Source: Acidimicrobiia bacterium (lineage in GTDB: Bacteria; Actinomycetota; Acidimicrobiia; IMCC26256; PALSA-610). From it: a stretch of 64,000 nucleotides of DNA. The stretch covers positions 963,557 to 1,027,556 of the forward strand of contig BPGH01000001.1 of assembly GCA_026002935.1 (NCBI GenBank), given 5' to 3'. Under the pieces are notes generated by a model that worked only from the letters and a program-made list of their open reading frames with translations, searched no databases and was not told the origin of the DNA. A program made the translations under genes and the position numbers. Positions 195-1,722 of this stretch are shown one piece after another. Numbering within the stretch: the stretch's first letter is position 1; every line of letters begins with the position of its first letter.

Positions 195-685
195 CAGTCA
201 CGCACGTCCACAAGGACCCCGACGCCCTGACGATGGTCATCACCGCCGAGCTCGAGGCGCCGGTCGAGCGGGCATGGCAACTCTGGGCCGACCCGCGCCA
301 GCTCGAACGGTGGTGGGGTCCGCCCGGGTACCCGGCGACGTTCGTCGAGCACGACCTGCGCGTCGGCGGCCGCGCCGTCTACTACATGACGAGCCCGGAG
401 GGCGAGCGGCACTACGGCTGGTGGGAGTTTCTGGCAGTCGACCCGCCGCGGCGGCTCGAGGTGCACGACGGCTTCGCCGACGACGCCGGTCGGCCGAACT
501 ACGACCTCGGTGTGGGCCGGATGGTGATCACGCTGGCCGAGCGCGCCGGCCGCACCGAGATGGTCATCACCTCGCACTTCCCGACGCCCGAGGCGATGGA
601 GGAGATGCTCGCCATGGGCCAGGAGGAGGGCATGGTCCAGGCGATCGGCCAGATCGAGGGGATCCTCGCCGGCTCCGCCTCCTGA
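191..685 (+). CDS. SRPBCC/AHSA1 (START-like) domain protein
   Basis: APVERAWQLWADPRQLERWWGPPG, DLRVGG, QEEGMVQAIGQI motifs; GTGA overlap with ArsR. Confidence 0.9.
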   Translation: MTVTHVHKDPDALTMVITAELEAPVERAWQLWADPRQLERWWGPPGYPATFVEHDLRVGGRAVYYMTSPEGERHYGWWEFLAVDPPRRLEVHDGFADDAGRPNYDLGVGRMVITLAERAGRTEMVITSHFPTPEAMEEMLAMGQEEGMVQAIGQIEGILAGSAS

Positions 686-842: not shown

Positions 843-932
843 CACCTCGAGCACAGCACCGCGCCGTGCGGCCGAGTGTCGCAACCGCGCCCCGGAGCCG
901 AGGAGGCCTCGAGCCGAGGGTTGGAGGCGACG

Positions 933-1722
933 ATGCAGGACTCGATCGTCCTCGATGTCGAGCTGTTGCGTGAGCGCGTCCGCGAGAAGTACCGCGAGGT
1001 GGCCGTCGAGCCGACGGCCGAGTTCCATTTCGACACCGGACGCAAGCTCGCGCAGAAGCTCGGGTACGACGAGGCGCTTCTCGACGACTTCCCCGAGGAG
1101 GCGATCGAGTCGTTCGCGGGCGTCGGGAACCCCTTCGCGCTGCGCCGACCCGGGCCAGGGGAACGAGTCCTCGACGTCGGCTCGGGGCGCGGGTCTCGAC
1201 TCGTTCCTCGCGGCACACCTCGTCGGTGCGCACGGCGCGGTCGTCGGGATCGACATGACGCCCGAGATGCTCGAGCGGTCGCGCCGCATGGCACGCGAGC
1301 TCGGGCTCGACCACGTCGAGTTCCGAGAGGGCTACGCGGAAGCGCTTCCGGTCGAGGACCGCTGGGCAGACGTCGTGATCTCGAACGGCGTGATCAACCT
1401 GTGTCCCGACAAGCGAGCCGTGTTCGCCGAGATCCGCCGTGTGCTCCGGCCCGGCGGCCACCTCCAGTTCTCCGACATCGCGACCGGTCGTGCCGTGCCG
1501 CCCGAGGCGTTGCGCGACATCGACCTGTGGACCGGCTGAATCGCAGGTGGGCTGCCCCGGGAGGGCTGGCGGAAGATGCTCGAGGAAGCCGGGTTCGTCG
1601 ACATCGAGATCGGCGACGCGGTCGACGTGTTCGCAGGCGCACGAGGGGAGGCGAAGGCCCGCTCGTTCGAAACCGTCTCGCTCACGTTCTACGCCCGTAG
1701 CGGACCCCATCCCAGCCCGTGA
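933..1722 (+). CDS. ArsM-like class I SAM methyltransferase, putative selenoprotein (UGA 1537-1539 = Sec); +1 indel in G-run near 1184-1187
   Basis: VREKYREVA, SFAGVGNPF, VLDVGSG(A)GLD, VVGIDMTPEML, DVVISNGVINL; DLWTG-UGA-IAGGL aligns with the ArsM W-x-G-C-I/V-A-G motif; frame continues 60 codons (LEEAGFVDIEI) to TGA 1720-1722. Confidence 0.8.
1551..1570 (+). promoter_or_regulatory. Candidate bacterial SECIS hairpin
   Basis: GCTGCCC-CGGGA-GGGC(T)GGC stem-loop begins 11 nt after the in-frame UGA; apical loop 18 nt from UGA with G at loop position 2. Confidence 0.6.

Follow-up and report, generated by a model that had tools for sequence, protein, structure and literature searches.

The window, the whole 64,000-nucleotide stretch of Acidimicrobiia DNA analysed here, carries near its left end a coding region (933-1722) for a methyltransferase related to ArsM, with an in-frame TGA and a hairpin directly downstream of it (Table 1). 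An AHSA1/SRPBCC-domain protein is encoded upstream, and farther upstream lies a partial open reading frame (3-194) for which no Pfam match was found at E up to 0.001; we take it to resemble the C-terminus of an ArsR-type regulator. Scanning of 600-2100 yielded no promoter-like site, and it reported a terminator-like hairpin at 1000-1020, inside the coding sequence, with no evident meaning.

Table 1. Features at the methyltransferase locus (positions in the window)
Feature	Position	Strand	Basis
AHSA1/SRPBCC-domain protein, upstream neighbour	233..685	+	Pfam PF08327, 82.8 bits
Shine-Dalgarno-like GGAGG, 5 nt upstream of the ATG	923..927	+	direct reading
CDS part 1: ATG and 85 N-terminal codons (M1-G85), frame of the ATG, ending in the SAM motif VLDVGSG	933..1187	+	orthologue and profile matches
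GGGG run with one surplus G, a frameshift read as an assembly indel	1184..1187	+	runs X1 and X3; orthologues
CDS part 2 (+1 frame), G85-P262: class I SAM methyltransferase core and C-terminal part	1186..1719	+	profile and orthologue matches
In-frame TGA, read as the Sec codon (U202), aligned with Cys224 of CmArsM	1537..1539	+	orthologue columns; four runs
SECIS hairpin: 5' arm 1551-1557, loop CGGGA 1558-1562, 3' arm 1563-1570, U1567 bulged	1551..1570	+	folding; relatives
Terminal TGA stop of the gene	1720..1722	+	direct reading

A frame break inside the coding region

The preliminary description had treated 933-1722 as one open frame. Instead, the interval comprises 790 nt, a number indivisible by 3, and the frame opened by the ATG at 933 is not that of the TGA at 1537; a +1 offset at the GGGG run, overlooked in that first reading, separates the N-terminal 85 codons from the C-terminal part (1186-1722). 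The latter opens with GAGLDSFLAAH and continues the same protein from 1186. The SAM motif VLDVGSGAG straddles the break, and a class I SAM-binding core was recognised. Part 1 was 52-66% identical to the N-termini of nine orthologues and covered positions 9-86 of the ArsM selenoprotein profiles, while part 2 was 66-73% identical to the orthologues and matched Methyltransf_31 (97.6 bits) and Methyltransf_11 (69.6 bits) of Pfam. When the two pieces were searched by tblastn, both fell in a single frame in all nine close orthologues.

Independent DNA was available as contigs of four public runs from four studies, all of them Logan contigs, which drop rare variants. Two runs, X1 and X3, come from two independent studies and are near-identical to the window. 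X1 lacks one letter at 1184 at a depth of 12.3 of 12.3 (a 972-nt contig over 900-1544, with four other letters changed), and X3 lacks it at 4.3 of 4.3 (a contig over 1142-1366). Run X2 matches the window exactly and could be its source; none of its contigs spans 1186, so the source sample does not settle the surplus G. Other genes of the same genome are broken in a similar manner. The rpoB gene (G000:C1:167239-170571, outside the window) is broken into six or more matches in three frames and has one internal TGA; the adjoining rpoC is intact. The selA gene (G000:C1:658815-659970, locus L001, also outside the window) passes from frame 0 to +1 and back to 0 with its conserved motifs kept, including FSGDKLLGGPQAG, and these frame changes are probably assembly errors too. 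The genome consists of four contigs at 85% completeness and appears to be a long-read assembly with indel errors. Because the orthologues are in one frame, because X1 and X3 lack the G and because rpoB and selA are also broken, we read the surplus G as an error of the assembly and not as a trait of the organism. A programmed frameshift at the GGGG run was considered and rejected, given the single frame in nine of nine close orthologues and the two runs without the G. The indel errors in rpoB, selA and the ArsM-like gene call for caution in reading other frameshifts in the window.

Taken at face value, the frameshifted gene and the twice-broken selA would describe a decaying selenocysteine (Sec) trait, in which the gene is dead in the organism through a frameshift at 1184-1187 and a nonsense codon at 1537, and both lesions are indeed present in the assembly as given. 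However, near-identical contigs of two other studies are free of the surplus G, and the essential rpoB is broken likewise, which points to the assembly. Moreover, the pieces on the two sides of the shift are free of any additional stop and retain every conserved motif, and the TGA, being the conserved state in 81 of 89 orthologues as set out below, is no lesion. We therefore regard a pseudogene as very improbable.

The TGA column in orthologues

The reading around the in-frame TGA is DLWTG-TGA-IAGGLP, followed by exactly 60 sense codons (1540-1719), just as the preliminary description had it. That description had also named reads with TGC or TGT at 1537-1539 as a refutation; the contigs of the four runs list no altered letter there. 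We then compared this column in orthologues. Among the close relatives (66-73% identical), which came from a six-frame search of 40 related genomes, seven of nine carry TGA and two carry TGC. A scan with one genome per species added 80 further loci, with TGA in 73, TGC in six and one frame-broken copy. Over 89 orthologues, the window included, TGA occupies the column 81 times and TGC eight times, and about 55 conserved residues follow the TGA in the alignment. The named records among these loci include Acidimicrobiia, Ilumatobacteraceae, Pseudonocardia asaccharolytica DSM 44247 (L069, with TGA), Gaiellaceae and Nitriliruptoraceae, and further Alpha- and Betaproteobacteria, Chloroflexota and Thermomicrobiales. 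An in-frame UGA aligned with Cys and flanked on both sides by conserved sequence, by which a selenoprotein is recognised, was found at this locus.

Three loci deserve a separate remark. In the orthologue of a Rhodobacter-labelled MAG (L113), the frame breaks about 25 codons past the INLC motif; either the copy itself is broken or the assembly is at fault. Locus L038 was left out; it is an incomplete copy at the end of a contig, with two frames and two TGA codons. A Chloroflexota MAG has, shortly after its orthologue, a second ArsM-like methyltransferase open reading frame of 210 aa (L110:4312-4941), whose length suggests another copy truncated at a UGA.

The best 120 database relatives comprised 107 Cys forms, nine proteins that end exactly at the Sec column (mostly at 201 aa), one with Trp, one with Leu and two that the search pattern did not match. 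The nine bear out the expectation that standard gene callers would truncate the gene. They also invite the reading that the TGA is a true stop, so that the product is a 201-residue methyltransferase and the next 60 codons are untranslated or form a separate small gene; gene callers do call it so, and an ATG-started open reading frame is present at 1576-1722, within the 3' part of the gene. Against such a stop, the frame stays conserved across phyla for 55-60 residues beyond it, and in the 107 Cys-form proteins these residues are contiguous with the upstream part. A covarying hairpin stands at SECIS distance (see below), and a protein cut off there would lack the residue aligned with Cys224, which binds the metalloid in ArsM. 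A true stop is, in our estimate, extremely improbable.

Another explanation without selenium would be a reassigned TGA (to Trp or Gly, for instance) or readthrough with a near-cognate tRNA. It could appeal to the Trp at the Sec column in a Blastococcus deserti homologue (P0005) and to the Leu in P0008, both of which could stem from replacements such as TGA to TGG or be artefacts of translation. However, the terminal stop is TGA in the window gene and in 10 of 11 orthologues, and these genomes thus use TGA as a regular stop; the Sec machinery of the genome is complete; and the column pairs with Cys, not with Trp, in eight loci and 107 proteins. We consider a reassigned or misread TGA extremely improbable as well.

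We also surveyed the cysteines around the column (orthologue loci L028-L125, proteins P0002-P0121). The Cys forms mostly carry a second Cys at position -8 (C-x7-C), in eight of eight loci and in 94 of 107 database proteins, whereas none of the 81 Sec forms has it; 42 of the 81 have a Cys at +7. The Cys forms branch from inside the Sec forms; in a tree of 195 proteins, whose midpoint root is a drawing aid only, most of them group in one clade of 109 rows, the others in a clade of five and in a single row. Since they form mostly one clade, the association with Cys(-8) reflects few independent events and carries no statistical weight. The second Cys may compensate for the loss of selenium.

The hairpin and the selenocysteine machinery

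The hairpin starts 11 nt after the TGA and its 5-nt loop, whose second and third letters are both G, lies 18 nt after it, in exact agreement with the position given in the preliminary description. According to published criteria for bacterial SECIS elements (PMC13188914), the apical loop has 3-9 nt with G in its first two positions, the upper stem has at least 4 bp, the distance from the UGA is 16-37 nt and the MFE is -7.5 kcal/mol or lower. With a loop of 5 nt, a spacing of 18 nt, a stem of 4+3 bp and an MFE of -8.4 to -10 kcal/mol, the window hairpin falls within these limits (-8.4 kcal/mol taken for the comparison). Its stability by itself was rejected as evidence, as it is indistinguishable from that of shuffled sequence (z = +0.63; 151 of 200 shuffles folded at least as well, at 75% G+C). 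The hairpin is unexceptional alone, so it gains significance only through comparison with relatives.

Such a comparison was made for the equivalent 7-bp stem in 60 Sec-form relatives. Pairing was found in 97.6% of 420 cells, compared with 83.0% in shuffles and 25.7-48.8% in slid-register controls. Moreover, three pairs were changed on both sides (G-C/C-G, C-G/U-A and G-C/U-A) in 58 cells, which none of 500 shuffles reached. The eight Cys forms paired at three to five of the seven positions in the same register. The 60 covarying Sec forms have the loop 2 nt nearer to the UGA than the subgroup of 21 sequences to which the window belongs, that is, the loop motif C-CGUGC-G of this subgroup (CGGGA in the window) sits 2 nt farther downstream. 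Within the window subgroup, no hairpin column varies, not even at synonymous sites, whereas flanking third positions do; this fits an RNA constraint, and the subgroup has no covariation of its own. At 1552-1566 of the window, the local codons read LP-R-A rather than LP-C-A, so that the RNA motif is kept and the codon reading changed. Scanned against Rfam with E up to 10, the interval 1450-1750 matched no family, and there seems to be no Rfam model for a bacterial SECIS of this sort.

The preliminary description had correctly noted that no sel gene is visible in the window. We found the machinery elsewhere on the same contig, with selA (291.2 bits), selB (295.8 bits), selD (406.8 bits) and tRNA-Sec (73.4 against a gathering score of 47) all above their curated cut-offs. 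The four components of the pathway (selA, selB, selC and selD) are accordingly present in the genome, selA being in two frames in the assembly. ARAGORN called a second tRNA-SeC at G000:C2:337481-337573; this locus is missing from the Rfam tRNA-Sec matches, and the call is probably false.

Two further candidate selenoproteins, both belonging to recognised (seleno)protein families, emerged from a genome-wide composition screen for in-frame TGA codons, which gave 92 candidates, mostly gene junctions, missed the ArsM-like gene and was used as a source of these two leads only. One is a candidate UGSC selenoprotein with an in-frame TGA in N-U-G-S-C (L130:418-969; G000:C1, ~1938017-1938568), which matched PF24696 at 121.4 bits and NF041046 at 70 bits, short of the cut-off of 125. 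The second, a ResA-like candidate of the WAxxUGC type with the motif WASW-U-GC and a C-terminal TPR (L131:308-1318; G000:C1, ~2061607-2062617), reached 246.5 bits with NF041054, below the cut-off of 300. A Sec-containing formate dehydrogenase (TIGR01553) was looked for and rejected, with weak matches only and no internal stops in them.

Judged from the aligned sequences, the TGA at 1537-1539 almost certainly encodes selenocysteine, as the preliminary description had proposed and as orthologues, covariation and machinery support. Three observations named there as speaking against it, namely TGC or TGT at 1537-1539, homologues that stop here and a genome devoid of Sec machinery, were looked for; none was made, which supports the Sec reading. 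Taken together, we hold with a probability of about 93% that 933-1722 is a single gene for a class I SAM-dependent methyltransferase of the ArsM superfamily, about 262 residues long, with selenocysteine at residue 202. By analogy with the standard bacterial mechanism, the mRNA hairpin at 1551-1570 would recruit SelB-GTP carrying Sec-tRNA(Sec) to the UGA; Sec would be inserted in place of termination, and translation would proceed to the TGA at 1720.

Relationship to arsenite methyltransferases and possible substrate

The window protein was compared with canonical ArsM proteins, namely CmArsM (4FR0/4KW7), the Chlamydomonas ArsM (5EVJ) and human AS3MT. It shares their fold and SAM motifs, and the best matches among solved structures were ArsMs (E = 3e-22 to 4.7e-22). 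All AsMTs are described as having four conserved cysteines that are all needed for the first methylation, with Cys174-Cys224 as the metalloid site, in the account given in PMC6138428. In the alignment to CmArsM, Sec202 lies over Cys224, one of the metalloid-binding pair, whereas Cys174 is replaced by Gly and Cys72 by Val, and an equivalent of Cys44 is absent (Pro in the 5EVJ alignment). Only the Cys224 position of the canonical four (CmArsM Cys44, Cys72, Cys174 and Cys224) is thus kept, as Sec. Moreover, the protein has about 260 residues compared with the 377-387 of canonical chains, and its clade has no ars operon context in the loci examined. The motif W-x-G-C-I/V-A-G, which the preliminary description had attributed to arsenite methyltransferases, belongs to this clade; in the corresponding stretch of the alignment, the solved ArsMs read l-[ly]-g-e-C-l-[ag]-g-a-l.

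Profile searches placed the protein close to known selenoprotein families. The top ranks in NCBIfam were taken by the arsenite methyltransferase model NF008823 and by the methyltransferase modules of three ArsM-fusion selenoproteins, all with scores below the cut-offs. NF008823 has a cut-off of 263 bits; the intact orthologues reached 213.3 (L030) and 210.4, Cys forms 227.4 and 213.0, and the pieces of the window gene 186.8 (part 2) and 29.9. With the arsenite methyltransferase selenoproteins (PRK11873/NF008823), the window protein shares a single ArsM-like domain, one Sec in U-x-x-G, the pairing of Sec with Cys in homologues and a bacterial SECIS directly 3' of the UGA; the intact orthologue nevertheless stays under the cut-off. 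The UxxG motif of PMC13188914 Table 1 is found as U-I-A-G at 1537-1548, and its Gly is invariant in the alignment. The fusion models NF041537 (ArsM/AhpD), NF041536 (ArsM/DUF2284) and NF047649 (MTase/UXPK-star) have the methyltransferase module and the UxxG Sec site in common with the window protein and matched over positions ~9-227 with 235.2, 201.3 and 202.6 bits, best or near-best in NCBIfam. In contrast to these fusions, the window protein has neither a second domain nor a second Sec, and the cut-offs of 510, 575 and 460 are far above its scores.

Selenoproteins of this type are in print. The GOS analysis of Zhang & Gladyshev 2008 (PMC2398784) lists ArsM-type selenoproteins (PRK11873, eight sequences) and Peng et al. 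2016 (PMC5029168) report them in 39 organisms. Table 1 of Zhang et al. 2026 (PMC13188914) has the entry 'Arsenite methyltransferase, NF008823, UxxG, 1 Sec' under 'experimentally verified', for which it cites Fomenko et al. 2007. The preliminary description's word 'hidden' does not fit a family already named in these three papers (PMC2398784, PMC5029168 and PMC13188914). The ArsM-type UxxG selenoprotein family has been in print since 2007-2008, and the window gene is a further member.

We considered whether the protein is a bona fide arsenite methyltransferase that confers arsenic tolerance, a proposal that overlaps with the preferred reading and does not compete with the Sec assignment. Its best structural and sequence relatives are ArsMs, database relatives carry that name, and the literature files the selenoprotein family under ArsM. 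On the other side, three of the four AsMT cysteines are missing, the NF008823 score is under the cut-off even for the intact orthologue, and the neighbourhoods of 32 loci showed neither ars transporter nor reductase genes. Specifically, ArsB, Acr3 and ArsC were not found by Pfam in 136 flanking open reading frames of the 32 loci. Recurring neighbours in these loci were ArsR-rhodanese regulators (five), MFS transporters (five), DsrE (three), OsmC (three) and further methyltransferases. Because three canonical ArsM cysteines are missing and no ars genes stand beside the gene in relatives, we regard arsenite as a possible but doubtful physiological substrate, and an arsenic-tolerance enzyme in the strict sense as a proposal that falls short of even odds.

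Sec202, at the Cys224 position beside the SAM pocket, would most likely act as a selenolate that holds a soft metalloid or chalcogen during its SAM-dependent methylation. A singly coordinated substrate, such as an organoarsenical or a reactive sulfur or selenium species, seems at least as likely as arsenite. The clade would behave like an ArsM with a selenol at its metalloid site, yet by its sequence it falls outside canonical ArsM membership. An alternative, to which we give a rather low probability, is that the clade is a distinct single-selenol methyltransferase and not an arsenite methyltransferase, possibly Sec-dependent from its origin. Under such a scheme, a lone Sec would stand in for the several cysteines of the ArsM site, with reactive sulfur or selenium species or singly coordinated metalloids as substrates. 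The clade is distributed over Acidimicrobiia and other Actinomycetota, Alpha- and Betaproteobacteria, Chloroflexota and Thermomicrobiota.

For the reading that we prefer, an ArsM-superfamily methyltransferase with Sec202, the biological gain is modest, since the family is already known; what is added is clear covariation evidence for its SECIS across several phyla. For annotation, the gene would be called a pseudogene or a 201-residue stump without the residue aligned to the metalloid-binding Cys224 of ArsM. The retention of one of the four ArsM cysteines in this clade casts doubt on the database label 'arsenite methyltransferase'. Together with the UGSC and WAxxUGC candidates, the ArsM-like gene indicates that this Acidimicrobiia-like genome uses selenocysteine.
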